A DNA stretch of 64,000 nucleotides from an uncultured Gemmatimonadales bacterium (GTDB lineage Bacteria > Gemmatimonadota > Gemmatimonadetes > Gemmatimonadales > GWC2-71-9): positions 128,001 to 192,000 of the forward strand of contig CAVVKJ010000008.1 in assembly GCA_963748815.1 (NCBI GenBank), read 5' to 3'. Made by a program: the position numbers. Each line of letters starts with the position of its first letter. Within the stretch, counting starts at the first letter, position 1. Positions 36,201 through 42,200 of this stretch are shown here, piece after piece.

Positions 36201-39200
36201 TGGAAGGGATGGAAGCGCGGCGCCAGCCACATCGACCTCGTCGCGCCCCGCGTGCGCTCGCTCGAGGGGATGATTCTCGCGTGGAGCCCGGGCACCAAGG
36301 GGAAGCCGGTCGACGGTCCGGCCGTCATTCTCCCGGATGCCGCCGATTCGGCGGCGTTCGCCTCCGCGATCGCGTCGGTCAAGGGCGCCTACGTCCTGAT
36401 CAGCGCGCCGGAACTTACCTGCCGGCCCGACTCGAGCTACAAGGAGTCGGCGCTGCCGGAGGAGTTCGACCGGATGGTCAAGGAGCGCGACGAGTACCGG
36501 GCGGCGTGGGCCGCACGGGTGAAGCGCACCGGGTTGAACAACAAGGCGCTGCAGCTGGCGCTCCAGGGCGCCGGCGCGAAGGGCGTGCTCACCAGTAACT
36601 GGTCACGGGGATGGGGCGTCTTCCGGGTGTTCGACGGCAAGACCACCGAGGTCCCGGCCGCGGTGCTGAGCTGTGAAGACTACGGGCTGGTCTTCCGGCT
36701 CGCGGAGAACCGGCAGGGGCCGGTGCTTCGGGTGACCGCCGACGCGCAAGACCTGGGCGAGGTCCCCGTGTTCAACACCATCGCCACGATCCCCGGCACC
36801 GACCGGGCGGGTGAATACGTCGTGCTGTCCGCCCACTTCGACAGCTGGGACGGGTCCTCCGGCGCCACCGACAACGGCACCGGCACGGTCGTGATGATGG
36901 AGGCGATGCGCATCCTGAAGGCGGTCCTCCCCCGTCCGAGCCGGACCATCATCGTGGGGCACTGGAGCGGCGAGGAGCAGGGGCTGAATGGCTCGCGGGC
37001 CTACATGGCCGACCACCCGAAGGTGGTCGAGGGGCTGCAGGCCCTCTTCAACCAGGACAACGGCACGGGGCGGGTGGCCTACGTGAGCGCCGCGGGGCTG
37101 ATGGAGGCGGGCGGCTTCCTGGCGGACTGGTTCTCGAAAGTGCCGTCCGAGATCACCGGCAACTTCAAGGCCTTCTCGGTGCCTGGCACCCCGGCGGGCG
37201 GCGGCTCCGACAACGCCTCGGTGGCCTGCTATGGCGCGCCGGGCTTCGGCCTCGGCTCGCTGCCCTGGGAGTACTTCTCCTACACCTGGCACACCAACCG
37301 CGACACCTACGACAAGCTGGTGATGAGCGAATTGCGGAACAACGCGACGCTGACCGCCATGCTCGCGTACCAGGCGGCGCAGGACCCGAACACGATCCCG
37401 CGGGACCGCCGCGTGATGCCGATCAACTCGCGCACCGGTGAGCAGCAGACCTGGCCGGAGTGCCAGCCCGCGGCGCGGTCGTTCGCGGAGTACACGCGCT
37501 AGCGCTCGACGGTCCACCATGACCGCAAGACGAGGCGTCCCATCCGGGGCGCCTCGTGTTGTATTCGAACCCGGGCGAGTCGCCTAGCGCGTCAGCGTCG
37601 GGATCAGTTCTTCGTTGGTCTTGGCGCCACGGAAGAGGGAAAGCAGGTCCTGCATCGCGTTGATGGAGGGCATCCCCGCCGTGCGCTGCCGCAGGGCGTG
37701 GGAGGCCGCCAGCGCCTCGGGGGAAAAGAGCAGTTCTTCCCGCCGGGTGGAGCTCGCCGGGATGTCGATGGCGGGGTAGATACGCCGCTCCGCCAGCTCG
37801 CGGCTCAGCACCAGCTCGCTGTTGCCGGTTCCCTTGAACTCCTCGAAAATGACCTGGTCCATCTTCGATCCGGTGTCCACCAGCGCGGTGGCGATGATGG
37901 TCAGCGACCCGCCGCCGCGCGACGGGTCGACGTACCGGGCACTGCCGAGAAAGCGCTTGGGCTTTTCCATCGCGTTGGCGTCGAGGCCGCCGGACAACGT
38001 CCGGCCGGTGCCCCGTTCCAGCGTGTTGTAGGCCCGCGCAAGGCGCGTGATCGAATCGAGGATGATGACCGAATCCCGGCCGAGTTCCACTTGGCGCCGG
38101 GCCCGTTCCAGCGTGAGTTCCGCGACTTCGGCGTGGCGTTCGGCCGGCTGGTCGAAGCTCGAGGCCACCACCTCGCCCGCCCCCGCCATCTCCATCTCCG
38201 TCACTTCCTCCGGCCGCTCGTCGACCAGCAGGATGAAGAGCTGCGCGGCGGGATGGTTGCGAGCGACGCCCTCGGCCACCGCCTGCAGCACCGTGGTCTT
38301 GCCCGCCTTGGCGGGAGCGACGATGAGTGCGCGCTGTCCCTTGCCGAAGGGGCAGAGCAGGTCGATGAGCCGGGTGATTTCATGGGCGGTGCGCCGGGTG
38401 CCGGGGGGCACCTCGAGCGTGAGCATTTCCTTCGGGTGCGTCGCGGGAAGTTTCGAAAATTCGGGGCGCCGCGCGATCTCCTCGGGCGCGAGCCCGTTGA
38501 CCGTGGTCACCTTCTGGAGACTGGGACCGCGCCCCTTGCCGCCACGCCCCCCCTCACCGGCGATTTCATCGCCGGTGCGGAGGCCGTACTGCTTCACGAG
38601 ATGGGGGGGGACGAAGAGGTCGCCATCGGCCGGCGCATAGGCCGATTCACGGCGTCGTATGAAGGCGGTCCCGCGGTCCGTCAGTTCCAGGATGCCCAGG
38701 AGGGTATCGCTCACTGCGCCCCGGCGTCCCAGGAATCCCACGTCAGATGACAGCGTGTCACGAAGTACTCCGGCGGATGGCCTGTGCGCTCCAGCAAGTC
38801 GTGGAGCATCTCGTGGCGAACGACCATTTCGTTCCCCACGTAGGCGCCGGCGATGGTGATCCGGGAGACGTTGCCGACCCGCTCCCAGAGACCCACCTTC
38901 TCGCCGATGCTCGTCTCGAAAGTAGCGACGTCGGGCACCACATACCACTCGATGCCCTCCATCGCGCCGCGCAGCTCGGCGCACGCCTCGGTGCGGGCGT
39001 ACCAGGTGGCATACTCGGCGGGAGCGGTCATCAGGACGGCGCCCTCGGGGGGGGCGCTCGGTTCGAGGCCGGTGCACGACGCCGCGACCAGCCAGATGGC
39101 CATGACGGGTACGAGGCGATGGGGAACGGATGCTGGGCGCATGGTGTCTCCACAACGCCCGATAAGCTCAAGGCCATGGGATCGCTTTCCCGGAGGGAAG

Positions 39201-42200
39201 GGTGTCCTGGCCCCGCTTCTCTGCCTGCCTTCGGCACCGAGCTATCTCCGGCCCATTCGGGCCTGAGACCTCAAGTTTTGCGGCCCCGGATCACTCCGGG
39301 TGTGCTCTTATCGGGCGGGTCGTTGGTGGACTGCGGAAGGGGTAGAACGCAAGTCCGGGGCCGACCAGCCCCGAGATGGCCTAAGTTGAACAGGCGGCTC
39401 CGCTTAGCCGGGGTGATTTGTCCGGAACTTGTTGTCCTGACATAGTTTAGGTAGCTTCGTGGCGATGCCCGGGCGCGCCGCCCAGGCCGCTATGGACCCC
39501 CGTCGAGGGACACCTGCTGATGATGCGCACCTTCCTACTGTGGCTGTCGGAGCAACAGGGTGTGTTCAACTTCCTGCGGCGCAATGGCCTCGCCCGAAAG
39601 TTCGCCAGCCGCTTCGTGGCGGGGGAAACACGGGAGACCGCCACGGCGGCGGCGCTCGAATTGAAGACCCTCGGGATCATGACGACGCTGGACCTCCTGG
39701 GGGAGAGCGTCAACCTGCCGGCCGATGCGATCGCGGCCCGCGACGAGTACCTGCGCATGCTCGACGGGCTCGCCGCCAGCGGCGCCGACATCAACGTGTC
39801 GGTCAAGCTCACCCAGATGGGCTTCGACATCGACGAGGCGCTCTGCCTCGACAACATGCGGCGCATCCTGGCCAAGGCGCGCGACCTCGGCGGCTTTGTC
39901 CGCCTCGACATGGAGAGCTCGGAATACACGCAGCGCACTCTCGATTTCTTCGAGCGGCACCTGCTCGCCGAGTTCGGCAGGCACACTGGCGTCGTCATCC
40001 AGTCCTGCCTCCGCCGCTCCACCGCGGATGTGCAGCGGCTCATCGGGCTCGGCGCGCGGGTGCGCCTCTGCAAAGGGGCCTACCTCGAGTCCCCCGACGT
40101 CGCCTTTCCGGACAAGAAGGACGTGGACCGGCAGTTCATCGCGTTGATGGAGGACCTCCTCCGGCACGGCAACTATCCCGGCATCGCCACGCACGACAAC
40201 CGGATGCTCGAGCATGCCCGGGCCTTCGTGACCCGTGAGGGGATTCCGGCCGACCGCTTCGAGTTCCAGATGCTCTTCGGCGTGCGGCGCGACCTGCAGG
40301 AGCGACTCCGCAAGGACGGCTTCAACATGCGGGTGTACATCCCGTTCGGCACCCAGTGGTATCCGTACCTGATGCGCCGGCTCGCCGAGCGCCCGGCCAA
40401 TATCGTCTTCATCTTCGGCAACGTGGTTCGCGAGACGCTCGCCTTGAAGGGTTGATGGAAGCCACCCTCGGCGGGTACATGAACAAGCACGGCCGCGCGG
40501 CCGCGTTCGGGGGGAGCGATGGGCACGCCTATTCGGTGGGGCTCTACGTGGACGACGACCCCGACGAGCGGGGCCGCTACGGCGCGGCGCTGCTCTTCGT
40601 CCGGTGGGATGCCGCCGGAGCCGCGCCGGTCGGGCACGTGGAGACGGAATTCCTCGCCTGGGGGCGCACCGCCCTCGAGGCGGAGGAACGGGTGAAGGCG
40701 CTCTCGCTCTACGACGTCAAGGCGGCGCTCGACGAGGCCATCGCCCGCCAGCCGGGGGAGTGGTGACGGGCGTCCCGGGGACGGTGCTCGAGCGCGACGG
40801 GGCGGCGTATCGGGTGATGACGGAGCGTGGCGAAGTGCGCGCCGTGCTGAGCGGGAAGACCAAGCGGGACACCCCGCGAGTCGTGGTGGGCGACCGTGTC
40901 ACCATGGTGCCGGACCCGGTCGGTGGCCTTTCCAGCATCACCGAGGTGGCCCCGCGCAAGACCCTCCTCGAGCGGCGCGTCCCGCTCGGGCGGGGCACGC
41001 GGCCCATCGCGGCCAATATCGACACCGTGTTCGTCGTGACCTCCAACGTCGATCCCGCGCCCCTCCCCCAGCTCATCGACCGCCTGCTCGTCGTGGCGGA
41101 AGCCAACGAGATTCCCGCGGCGGTGGTGATCAACAAGGTGGACCTCGATCCGGGGGTGTGGCTCGAGCAGCGATGCCGGCAGGCGGGATACCCGGTCTAC
41201 CGGACCAGCGCGAAGTCCGGGGAGGGGCTGGCGGAGTTGCGGGCCGCCATGGCGGGGCGCGAATCGGTGGTCACCGGCCCCTCCGGCGCGGGGAAGTCGA
41301 GCCTGCTGAACGCCCTGCAGCCTGGACTCACGCTGCGCACCGGCGAACTGAGCGCCAGGCACCGCCGCGGCCGGAACACGACGGTCTCCGCGCTCATGCT
41401 GCCGTTCGAAGGGGGCTACCTGGTGGATACGCCGGGCTTCAACGAGGTGGGGCTCTGGGGCATCGAGCCCCGGGAGCTCGCGAGCTGCTTTCCGGAGTTT
41501 CGACCGCTCATCGGCGAGTGCCGCTTCCAGGACTGCCGGCACGTCAGCGAGCCGGGGTGCAAGATCCAGGATGCGGTGGCGGCCGGCGCGATCGCGCCGG
41601 ACCGCCTGGAGAGCTACCGGATGCTGCTGGAGGAGACCGAGTCGGAACCGGAGGAGTGGGAGTAGCTACCTGGCTTTCCTCGTCCAGCGATCGGCGTCCC
41701 GCCCCTCCACCTTGGCCATCATCCGGTCGAACGCGTCCTGCAGGTCGATCCCCTCGCGGTTGGCCATGCAGATCAGCACGAACAGGATGTCGGCCATCTC
41801 CATCCCCAGCTCCCCGTCCGCCTCGCTGTCCTTCTTCGTCTTCTGGCCGAAGCGGTGGTTGACCTCCCGCGCCAGCTCCCCAACCTCCTCGGCCAGCCGG
41901 GCCATGTTGGTGAGCGGGTCGAAATAGCCCTCCTCGAACTGGCTGATCCAGTCATCCACTCGGCGCTGGGCGTCGGACAGGGTCATCGGGGAAGTCCGGT
42001 TGAGGTCCAATCGGGGGCGGGGGAACGCCCCTCGCCAATCGCTCCGGAGTATAGCATCTTTTTCGGGTCCCCTCGCACGCGCCATTCCTCATTTCCGGCC
42101 CTGTCATGCGCTCACGCGAACGAATCCTCGGCAATCTCGAAACGCTCTACCGCGAGACCTTCGAACGGGCCCGTACCTCGGGCGACCAGCGCCGGGTCGA

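Follow-up and report, generated by a model that had tools for sequence, protein, structure and literature searches.

A GEMM-I riboswitch with a predicted cGAMP-type pocket heads a lipoprotein gene and a short second rho gene in Gemmatimonadales

An uncultured Gemmatimonadales bacterium (GCA_963748815.1, genome label G000; assembly 86% complete) encodes, on the minus strand and in this order, an RF01051 (GEMM-I) aptamer, a small predicted lipoprotein and a second Rho factor (Rho2, gene rho2). As a translational cassette of the probable ON type, the switch is older and occurs family-wide, usually behind a sigma-54-type site, serving STAS and lipoprotein genes; rho2 joined it once and recently, as a later passenger in a single clade. 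The link to Rho is limited to two sister genera, the genus of this genome (g1) and g42, and may be partly incidental. The window analyzed comprises 64 kb of contig CAVVKJ010000008.1 (128,001-192,000), and coordinates are positions in this window (Table 1).

Organization of the locus

Table 1. Features of the riboswitch-lipoprotein-rho2 locus
Feature	Position	Strand	Basis or remark
Sigma-54-type -24/-12 site	39348..39363	-	GG-N10-GC; -12 box canonical, -24 box degenerate
5' leader segment by which the OFF helix could reach into the Shine-Dalgarno sequence	39321..39330	-	Unconstrained fold
GEMM-I aptamer, A20 type	39230..39316	-	RF01051, 53.8 bits
Hairpin in the spacer that links aptamer and anti-P1 strand	39172..39212	-	Folds in both states
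Anti-P1 strand	39156..39166	-	Exact complement of 39317-39307 (P1 5' strand and J1/2)
Lipoprotein Shine-Dalgarno sequence, GGAG	39148..39151	-	Sequence
143-aa predicted lipoprotein, HEMLH	38711..39142	-	ORF; minimal zincin-like predicted fold
Second Rho, 376 aa, Type 4/Group B	37584..38714	-	Pfam; GTG start
12-bp intergenic hairpin (rho2 / convergent M28 peptidase gene)	37530..37557	.	Terminator-like on the plus strand only

The aptamer lies 87 nt from the lipoprotein ATG (39142), and the GTG start of rho2 overlaps the lipoprotein stop codon in a GTGA sequence (38714-38711). All parts of the GEMM-I riboswitch and two-gene unit described in an earlier note on this DNA (the RF01051 match, both ORFs, and the overlap) were located. 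The convergent neighbor of rho2 was identified as an M28 peptidase gene by Pfam. Contigs from the RNA libraries of two studies (X6 record 27 and X1 record 6) span the lipoprotein-rho2 junction; as these come from relatives, carry no strand, and may be DNA, they offer a weak hint of co-transcription.

The aptamer and its probable ligand

The covariance match exceeds the gathering score of 35 and covers the full model (positions 1 to 87). The last unpaired J1/2 base before P2 (39306, model position 11), which we take to be the equivalent of Vc2 G20, is an A. The bases that we presume to correspond to A47 and C92 in the same numbering are A (39279) and C (39234), and the P2 loop is a GUGA (GNRA) tetraloop. 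A occupies the G20 position in both aptamers of this genome, and the A-bearing aptamer pattern was detected in 85 of 201 family genomes, with a single match in the control. Among 26 aptamers read across the order, 15 are of the G20 and 11 of the A20 type, and genome G022 carries both. The A in place of G20 defines the cGAMP-binding GEMM-Ib aptamers; bispecificity is frequent among A20 aptamers, one of which binds c-di-GMP more strongly than cGAMP (PMC6140456). With G20 replaced by A, selectivity for c-di-GMP is not expected, and the pocket appears to be of the cGAMP-sensing (GEMM-Ib) form. The aptamer had been designated c-di-GMP-I, which holds for its RF01051 membership; c-di-GMP as the ligand is not supported as it stood, given the A at G20 and the cGAMP-type enzyme signatures of the genome.

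The proteins with these signatures are encoded outside the window. A REC-HD-GYP protein (C8:120558-121616) has RPYQ aligned to the RPYK of PmGH, an RxxQ motif that was found in 48 of 48 HD-GYP orthologs read (50 loci) and represents the signature of cGAMP phosphodiesterases (10.1101/600031). A candidate cyclase (C5:396287-397984) with an Fe-S/hydrogenase-like input domain combines the GGDEF motif with Asn at the Asp/Ser signature position. By the Hypr criteria of PMC6456294 (the signature residue, GGDEF rather than GGEEF, and the cross-dimer residue), its orthologs have Asn in 48 of 49 sequences read and Ser in one (50 loci), GGDEF in 49 of 49, and Phe or Tyr in 45 of 49, with Arg in none, at a cross-dimer position placed through the PleD alignment. 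A wider set of sequences has Asn in 119 and GGDEF in all 120. Asn has not been described as a Hypr residue in the literature searched, and a hand count shows no enrichment of the Asn-type GGDEF in genomes with the aptamer subfamily (76 of 85 versus 99 of 116). The Asn that PleD has ahead of its cross-dimer Arg is missing from the candidate cyclase as well, which could therefore be inactive. No Ser/Thr-type Hypr GGDEF was found among the 12 GGDEF matches of this 86% complete genome, nor in five relatives, for which 30 of 46 matches were read, and no SMODS (CD-NTase) domain was found in 5 genomes.

Taken together, the A20 aptamer, the RxxQ HD-GYP, and the Asn/Phe-type Hypr-like GGDEF make sensing of cGAMP, or of both dinucleotides, likelier than that of c-di-GMP alone, and the in vivo ligand is most likely 3',3'-cGAMP, by itself or with c-di-GMP, a prediction from sequence signatures in which we have somewhat better than even confidence. 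The same wiring could respond to c-di-GMP in vivo, with A20 tolerated and the Asn GGDEF being an ordinary or dead cyclase. That would suit the ability of A20 aptamers to bind c-di-GMP by means of a protonated adenine (PMC6140456), the presence in the genome of several canonical Asp GGDEFs, three RxxR HD-GYPs, and one EAL protein, and its lack of a proven cGAMP synthase. However, three independent guanine-reading positions (A20 of the aptamer, Gln of the phosphodiesterase, and Asn with Phe/Tyr of the cyclase) are shifted in the same direction and conserved family-wide, and G20 aptamers coexist with A20 aptamers in the order and even within G022; c-di-GMP alone is rather unlikely.

Promoter and expression platform

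In each of the 7 g1/g42 loci scored, the sigma-54-type site lies 32 to 34 nt ahead of the aptamer and earns 5 of 7 points against what we take to be the sigma-54 consensus; it is visible in all 16 g1 loci displayed. Scores of at least 6 of 7 were obtained for 23 of 30 lipoprotein loci (0.21 expected from shuffles), and the -24 box is degenerate in precisely the rho2-bearing clade (g1/g42). The genome encodes rpoN and 9 strong Sigma54_activat matches. Transcription from sigma-54 appears probable at this operon, with a predicted start near 39337.

The 11-nt anti-P1 strand, which ends 4 nt ahead of the Shine-Dalgarno sequence, supports the earlier proposal that the downstream complement of the aptamer 5' strand is the expression platform, as the match is exact and conserved beside the ribosome-binding site. 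In g1, 16 of 16 lipoprotein leaders retain the GGAG and 10 of 10 pairs. A Shine-Dalgarno sequence within 12 nt is combined with at least 8 of 10 pairs in 45 of 57 leaders, representing 14 of 20 genera, and the platform fronts two unrelated genes (STAS and lipoprotein). True covariation is scarce, since the 5' strand of P1 hardly varies. In the unconstrained fold, the 5' leader segment, with a core conserved across g1 and g42, pairs with the Shine-Dalgarno region. Forcing the bound fold makes the ribosome site cheaper to open in 18 of 18 leaders (median gain, 6.1 kcal/mol; only 0.3 in g42), at a median secondary-structure cost of 10 kcal/mol. We infer from these features that the leader works as a translational switch of the ON direction.

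Transcriptional control, with the spacer hairpin and a U-rich tract forming an intrinsic terminator, is highly improbable. A hairpin followed by a U-rich run does occur in some other genera (L085, L101), but that run itself pairs with the A-rich J1/2, and the end of the helix is tied to the position of the Shine-Dalgarno sequence. In g1, the hairpin is variable in sequence and is followed by only two U residues rather than a U tract. As previously noted for the leader, no terminator-like site was found on the minus strand of the region.

The lipoprotein

The 143-aa product has no Pfam family. Among its 92 homologs, Cys54, Glu105, His110, Glu111, His114, His122, and Cys131 are invariant, and Cys23, the lipid anchor position, is present in at least 90%. 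The invariant residues include an HExxH motif (His110-Glu111-x-x-His114), followed by His122, which may be the third metal ligand, and a Cys54/Cys131 pair that probably forms a disulfide. In the predicted structure (pLDDT 88), the best fold match is abylysin (4jiu; Z score 6.2, which is under 8; rmsd 3.7 Å over 84 aligned residues), the best Foldseek E value is 0.065, and the top matches of both fold searches are zincin-type metalloproteins. The lipoprotein may be a minimal zincin, a putative metallopeptidase. The gene is under purifying selection (dN/dS 0.19) and stands alone in other genera.

The second Rho

The rho2 product contains the Rho_RNA_bind and ATP-synt_ab domains but no Rho_N (Pfam), whereas the canonical 415-aa Rho1 (C10:1155368-1156615) contains all three; the two are 52% identical, in full agreement with the earlier description of a second, N-terminally truncated Rho. 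In an alignment to E. coli Rho chain 1pv4, the equivalents of Lys184, Thr185, Glu211, Arg212, Asp265, Arg269, Gly287, and Met327 are present in 104 of 104 second Rhos and that of Arg366 in 103 of 103 covering the position; we take these residues to have catalytic roles. The Walker A, catalytic Glu, Walker B, and Arg finger equivalents are invariant in all sequences that cover them, and dN/dS is 0.05. Judged by alignment, Rho2 is a Type 4/Group B form (the latter designation reportedly comes from D'Heygere 2013), with the motor residues intact and the RNA-binding pocket remodeled. Such truncated Rhos are not new in kind, as they have already been described under these names in PMC11347177, a paper in whose main text the word "riboswitch" does not occur.

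The rho frame of this genome is open from 39155, and the second Rhos of cultured Gemmatimonadaceae are of Type 2d (PMC11347177, Table S2), which could suggest that the real product is a 523-aa Type 2d Rho with an Arg-rich tail at its N terminus, the lipoprotein frame being its shadow. This is barely credible and largely refuted: the upstream frame is interrupted by stops in 10 of 16 g1 and both g42 genomes, and it is the lipoprotein frame that shows purifying selection and an independent existence in other genera. Rho2 is accordingly predicted to be without the extra N-terminal (2d) region, its start being set by the GTGA overlap.

Distribution and origin of the linkage

The aptamer-lipoprotein-rho2 unit is present in 16 of 17 g1 genomes (this one and 15 of 16 others) and, with the same order and overlap, in both g42 genomes; the g1 exception, G005 (420 contigs), is also without any Rho_RNA_bind match. 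The gene order reported earlier for relatives is borne out, but the count of 3 of 31 genomes was too low. In the present numbering, G029 has no aptamer; the genome labels used earlier evidently differ. No aptamer was found at the 88 other second-Rho loci, and in a tree the linked rho2 genes form one clade (support 100/98) nested among cassette-free second Rhos. The promoter-aptamer-anti-P1-ribosome-binding site cassette precedes STAS genes and Rho-less lipoprotein genes in many genera, the cassette without rho2 being found in g13, g16, g17, g46, g64, g84, and g18. A switch aimed at Rho, as had been proposed, is not supported in view of this distribution and of the fact that rho2 is reached only via the lipoprotein ribosome-binding site. 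Control of Rho would be indirect, through coupling or polarity.

It is unlikely that rho2 is a mere passenger, the switch controlling only the lipoprotein and rho2 being expressed from its own Shine-Dalgarno sequence or an internal promoter. The cassette is indeed older than rho2 and dispenses with it in the seven genera listed above, and strong sigma-54 sites are rare (2 of 74 and 0 of 14) at cassette-free second-Rho loci. SD-like G runs precede the GTG, and translation of the upstream gene relieves the rho2 start by just 1.7 kcal/mol. Against this, the GTGA overlap is exact in all 18 genomes despite synonymous distances up to 0.5-0.75, opening the rho2 start costs more (median 17.9 kcal/mol) than in six control starts (3.9-16.8), and no sigma-70-like site was found in the region.

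Proposed mechanism and significance

The explanation that we prefer has, as a whole, about an even chance of being correct. A sigma-54-started transcript would carry the A20 GEMM-I aptamer, the lipoprotein gene, and rho2. Without ligand, the 11-bp anti-P1 helix would disrupt P1 and mask the site where ribosomes load to translate the lipoprotein (OFF); a cyclic dinucleotide bound while the spacer hairpin is being transcribed would lock P1 and leave the anti-P1 strand free, allowing lipoprotein translation (ON). With its weak Shine-Dalgarno sequence and overlapping stop, rho2 would follow through translational coupling and escape from polarity. cGAMP would be made by the Fe-S-sensing Asn-type GGDEF and removed by the RxxQ REC-HD-GYP. 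Rho2 would be an active ring ATPase whose RNA-recognition site has loosened; its most likely role is that of a conditional auxiliary Rho, in a ring of its own or in mixed rings with Rho1. Hetero-hexamers have already been suggested (PMC11347177). A more ambitious version, a complete new Gemmatimonadales 3',3'-cGAMP circuit (a new subclass of Fe-S-sensing Asn cyclase, the RxxQ phosphodiesterase, and A20 riboswitches downstream of sigma-54 promoters) that, in one clade, switches on a Rho2 with changed RNA recognition and so retunes termination genome-wide, for example by Rho2 mixing into Rho1 rings, is speculative and rather doubtful.

With a pocket of the cGAMP form heading its operon, a signaling molecule may decide when Rho2 is made. 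To our knowledge, N-terminally short second Rhos have been known for a decade with no assigned role; signal-dependent synthesis, if true, would turn such a Rho into a conditional regulator and provide a condition in which to probe it. Literature searches yielded neither a rho gene under riboswitch control nor a paper on cGAMP signaling in Gemmatimonadota. Matching signatures of reader, eraser, and candidate writer would bring this phylum into the range of cGAMP signaling, and the Asn-type GGDEF would broaden the definition of cGAMP synthases. The hosts are uncultured, yet all parts are accessible as purified RNA and proteins.

Comparison with known systems

Among the closest counterparts are the Geobacter GEMM-Ib (3',3'-cGAMP) riboswitches Gs1761 and Gm0970 (PMC6140456, PMC6456294, PMC8835794), which share the GEMM-I fold, A at G20, the A47/C92 equivalents, the probable ON logic, exported-protein targets, and a genomic RxxQ HD-GYP. 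Unlike these, the present switch comes from another phylum, falls into an aptamer subfamily of its own that has paired changes within the internal loop of P2, uses a translational anti-P1 platform behind a sigma-54-type site, is accompanied by an Asn-type cyclase with no Ser/Thr Hypr found, and has a regulon that includes a STAS protein and Rho. With the Vibrio cholerae Vc2-type c-di-GMP-I riboswitch (RF01051) it shares a full-model score above gathering but not G20. The candidate cyclase resembles the Hypr GGDEF GacA (PMC6456294) in the non-Asp signature residue, GGDEF, and aromatic cross-dimer residue, and differs from it in the Asn in place of Ser/Thr and in the input domain; the HD-GYP shares RxxQ with the cGAMP phosphodiesterase PmxA (10.1101/600031).

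The lipoprotein shares with the minimal zincins abylysin (4jiu), jannalysin (4jix), and selecase (4qhf) a domain of ~110 residues with an HExxH helix, at 8 to 14% identity and Z scores of at most 6.2, but has in addition a lipid anchor, a probable disulfide, and an invariant His eight residues past the second His. Rho2 agrees with Type 4/Group B Rhos (Moreira et al. 2024, PMC11347177) in being a second copy beside a full Rho, without the N-terminal domain, and in combining an altered RNP1 (GFGF not kept) with an intact ATPase; the Type 2d second Rhos of three cultured Gemmatimonadota from the same study have 566 to 688 aa, compared to 376 aa here. Finally, in riboswitch-coupled Rho-dependent polarity (E. 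coli mntP, thiM, and ribB; PMC12360218), the OFF state of a translational switch can expose the mRNA to Rho, mntP likewise being an ON switch with a Rho-exposing OFF state; in those cases Rho is the effector, whereas here a Rho paralog is the regulated product.

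Organization of the locus

The three-part arrangement described in the earlier note was recovered in full (see the table below). A complete RF01051 match (53.8 bits) is followed, after an 87-nt spacer, by an ORF for a predicted 143-aa lipoprotein that contains an HEMLH motif and belongs to no Pfam family, and the TGA of this ORF overlaps the GTG start of an ORF for a 376-aa second Rho (Rho2), which has the Rho_RNA_bind and ATP-synt_ab domains and lacks Rho_N. The canonical 415-aa Rho (Rho1) was likewise found to be 52% identical to Rho2. An alternative reading of rho2 as a 523-aa Type 2d protein was rejected on account of stop codons in relatives.

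On the opposite strand, a block conserved in the source genus (g1) and its sister genus (g42) looks by eye like a sigma-70-like promoter of a divergent proline dehydrogenase gene. Elsewhere, two genes in the window and two GGDEF genes on other contigs are split into overlapping frames, probably by assembly indels; the genes are intact in relatives where seen.

Coordinates of the features discussed (window positions unless a contig is named)
Feature	Position	Strand	Remarks
RF01051 aptamer	39316-39230	-	
A at model position 11	39306		
Strand pairing with P1 and J1/2	39166-39156		
Lipoprotein gene	39142-38711		
rho2	38714-37584		
Canonical rho	C10:1155368-1156615		
Putative sigma-70-like promoter	39424-39460	+	
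Proline dehydrogenase gene	39520-40455		divergent
FadB-like and amidohydrolase-like genes	33762-35904 and 42364-44053		split frames; assigned by eye
GGDEF genes	C17:109284-109750 and C10:64089-64473		split frames
Second A20 aptamer	C5:308472-308556	+	locus L002:1501-1585
REC-HD-GYP gene	C8:120558-121616	-	~6.4 kb left of the window
Fe-S GGDEF gene	C5:396287-397984		candidate cyclase
Signaling gene cluster	C5:395064-400484		
Fe-S GGDEF orthologue with Ser	G035:C3:241539-243221		locus L200

Aptamer type and ligand

The last unpaired base before P2 (model position 11) is A in this aptamer and G in the consensus; we take this position to be that of G20 in the Vc2 aptamer. As described in PMC6140456, the guanine of c-di-GMP is recognized by G20, in whose place the cGAMP-binding GEMM-Ib riboswitches have A, while A20 aptamers are often bispecific and one of them, Cbe 1-2, prefers c-di-GMP. 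Both aptamers of the source genome are of the A20 type, and this base together with the candidate enzymes described below tilts the balance modestly towards cGAMP, either alone or together with c-di-GMP (dual sensing), as the probable ligand.

A 19-nt pattern typical of the A20 subfamily was found in 85 of the 201 family genomes, with a single control hit. In the order, 26 aptamers were read at this position, of which 15 carry G and 11 carry A, and one genome (G022) has both types; the most frequent aptamer target is a STAS gene. The second A20 aptamer of the source genome also belongs to this subfamily and heads STAS, receiver and ccmABC-like genes; it is accompanied by a strong sigma-54-type site and by a strand complementary to the P1 5' strand (anti-P1). 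Genome G211 carries five copies of the subfamily pattern, presumably a larger regulon. Four G20 aptamers from as many genera (L054, L059, L066 and L074) are followed at 20 to 120 nt by a conserved ~35-nt element with no clear ORF start and, in L059, L066 and L074 (the last from an unpublished genome), by a strong hairpin; the element is possibly a further structured RNA.

Expression platform

In the unconstrained fold of the leader, most of the Shine-Dalgarno sequence (SD) is paired, and the downstream strand listed in the table pairs with the P1 5' strand and J1/2. Anti-P1 strands with at least 8 of 10 pairs and an SD within 12 nt were detected, in a count made without start picking, in 45 of 57 leaders from 14 of 20 genera and ahead of two unrelated downstream genes; an earlier test with automatic start picking, which chose wrong starts at several loci, gave 28 of 55 at p<=0.01. 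The C-G core pairs of this helix are kept in 44 to 45 of the 45 leaders, with G-U substitutions at the flanks and scarce true covariation. With P1, P2 and a free pocket forced, opening of the ribosome site became cheaper in all 18 leaders folded, by a median of 6.1 kcal/mol (0.3 kcal/mol in g42). The median secondary-structure cost of this bound fold, 10.2 kcal/mol, must be covered by the ligand and tertiary contacts. As the earlier note had stated, no intrinsic terminator was found on the minus strand of the leader, and transcriptional control by this means was rejected. The direction and timing that we infer are those of a translational ON switch that would make its decision during transcription.

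Promoter

Upstream sequences were scored against the GG-N10-GC consensus, which we take to be that of sigma-54 promoters. Of 30 lipoprotein loci, 23 have an upstream site that reaches 6 or more of the 7 consensus points (expected number, 0.21), as have 25 of 33 additional A20 loci (expected number, 0.6); in two sets of second-Rho loci, such sites were seen at 0 of 14 and 2 of 74. All 7 misses among the 30 belong to g1 and g42, where a site with a score of 5 lies at a fixed 32 to 34 nt before the aptamer. The source genome encodes rpoN and 9 strong matches to sigma-54 activators. Lipoprotein homologues at loci L082-L104 retain a sigma-54-type site even without the riboswitch, with a -12 box that is mostly TCGC rather than TTGC and may be the preferred form of the phylum.

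Lipoprotein

The search for homologues returned 196 proteins, of which the named ones are hypothetical proteins of Gemmatimonadota, and the matching Atlas clusters are unnamed. Matches are present in 92 of the 201 family genomes; the HExxH motif, His122, Glu105, Cys54 and Cys131 are invariant in 92 homologous sequences, and 92 members of the family gave one stray Pfam match (none for the query), and no solved structure related by sequence was found. The nearest folds to the structural model (pLDDT 88) are minimal zincins, with a middling Z score of 6.2 and an rmsd of 3.7 A over 84 aligned residues; the protein is likely a surface metallopeptidase.

Distribution and history of the cassette

A second Rho is encoded in 15 of the 16 other g1 genomes, all 15 of which have the aptamer and the lipoprotein gene with the GTGA overlap; in the remaining one (G005), a fragmented assembly, neither rho gene was found. 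Both g42 genomes carry the complete unit. Neither aptamer nor lipoprotein gene precedes rho2 at any of the 14 loci examined in other genera and families, or the second rho at any of 74 further Gemmatimonadota loci. These were part of a set of 80, in which 6 loci, all those encoding the 79-95% identical proteins, carry both elements and may come from the same genomes as already counted. In a tree of 59 of the 105 second-Rho sequences, the 8 cassette-bearing Rhos form a single clade (support 100/98) nested among other second Rhos. The aptamer precedes the lipoprotein gene without any rho in genera g13, g16, g17, g46, g64 and g84 and, judged by position, in g18; Rfam matches were obtained at 8 of the 20 loci scanned, 2 of them in g42. 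Because such Rho-free loci exist and the rho2 clade is single and nested, the aptamer-lipoprotein cassette is older than its link to rho2, which was appended once.

While the second Rhos of Gemmatimonadales begin at the OB fold, those in many Longimicrobiales-labelled records (L271, L274, L278 and most of L280-L294) have long open Arg-rich N-terminal regions and are Type 2d-like. Unpublished genomes (G030, G107, G172, G223 and G234) are included in the genus-wide second-Rho and 201-genome counts, and unpublished loci (L074, L091, L146 and L180) in the GGDEF, anti-P1, promoter, RxxQ and G/A tallies; the main claims are independent of them.

Rho2 and its probable coupling to the lipoprotein gene

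Rho2 belongs to Type 4/Group B, whose members, according to PMC11347177, conserve the catalytic residues and could form hetero-hexamers; all 3 Gemmatimonadota surveyed there have two Rho copies. In an alignment with E. coli Rho, the motor residues are invariant in 104 second-Rho sequences. The equivalents of Phe64, Arg66 and Asp78 are retained in 85 to 87 of 88 sequences outside the genus and in 16 of 16 inside it; those of Phe62, Glu108 and Tyr110 are small residues. The dN/dS of rho2 is 0.05 (14 pairs). Given the roles that we assume for the motor and RNA-binding residues of E. coli Rho, Rho2 is read as a putative active motor with loosened RNA selection.

Compared with six control starts, that of rho2 is more structured, and its SD is weak, yet upstream translation would relieve this structure by only 1.7 kcal/mol, so translational coupling to the lipoprotein gene is graded as likely. 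By analogy with E. coli mntP (PMC12360218), a lipoprotein gene left untranslated would in addition be prone to Rho1-dependent polarity. At the start of the lipoprotein gene, the Rut-like bias towards C is mild (~35 C versus 27 G in 90 nt) and uninformative, because homologues without rho2 share it. The RNA runs contained 5-9% of the words. RNA-library contigs of relatives, which lack strand information and could be of DNA origin, join the aptamer to the lipoprotein gene (X1 record 8) and the lipoprotein gene to rho2 (X6 record 27 and X1 record 6); none of them spans the whole unit, and the uncovered parts carry no weight.

Candidate cGAMP enzymes

The REC-HD-GYP protein encoded near the window has RPYQ aligned where PmGH has RPYK, and RxxQ is given as the signature of cGAMP phosphodiesterases in two preprints (10.1101/600031; 10.1101/2021.11.05.467447). 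Orthologues occur in 161 of the 201 genomes; the Gln was read at 48 of 50 loci, the other 2 being unread. In seven genomes (G000, the source genome, G009, G032, G033, G130, G137 and G222), the gene lies on the same contig as the aptamer-lipoprotein locus, 30-75 kb away.

The candidate cyclase, a 566-aa protein with Fer4, Fe_hyd_lg_C, FeS and GGDEF domains, is found in 175 of the 201 genomes. Asn replaces its base-reading Asp at 48 of 50 loci (Ser at 1, unread at 1) and in 119 of 120 members of a larger set, the cross-dimer Arg position is occupied by Phe or Tyr in 45 of 49 and by Arg in none, and the motif is always GGDEF. Hypr enzymes, as described in PMC6456294, combine a Ser/Thr signature with GGDEF and a non-Arg cross-dimer residue. 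The sole orthologue with Ser, the textbook Hypr residue, is that at L200. Against a cGAMP assignment, no Ser/Thr Hypr GGDEF was found in the source genome or among the 30 read of 46 matches in five relatives, and no CD-NTase (SMODS) in 5 genomes. A hand tally, which also counts against it, showed no enrichment of the Asn GGDEF in genomes that carry the aptamer subfamily (76 of 85, versus 99 of 116 genomes without the subfamily). The gene cluster around the candidate cyclase, which also encodes a sigma-54 activator, a 251-aa protein without a Pfam family and an RxxR HD-GYP protein, is a possible signaling hub for the A20 switches.

Comparison with known systems

The literature searched, from which most subscription papers were outside the scope, held nothing to the point on riboswitch control of rho or on cGAMP or A20-type riboswitches in Gemmatimonadota; the individual parts of the system are of known kinds.
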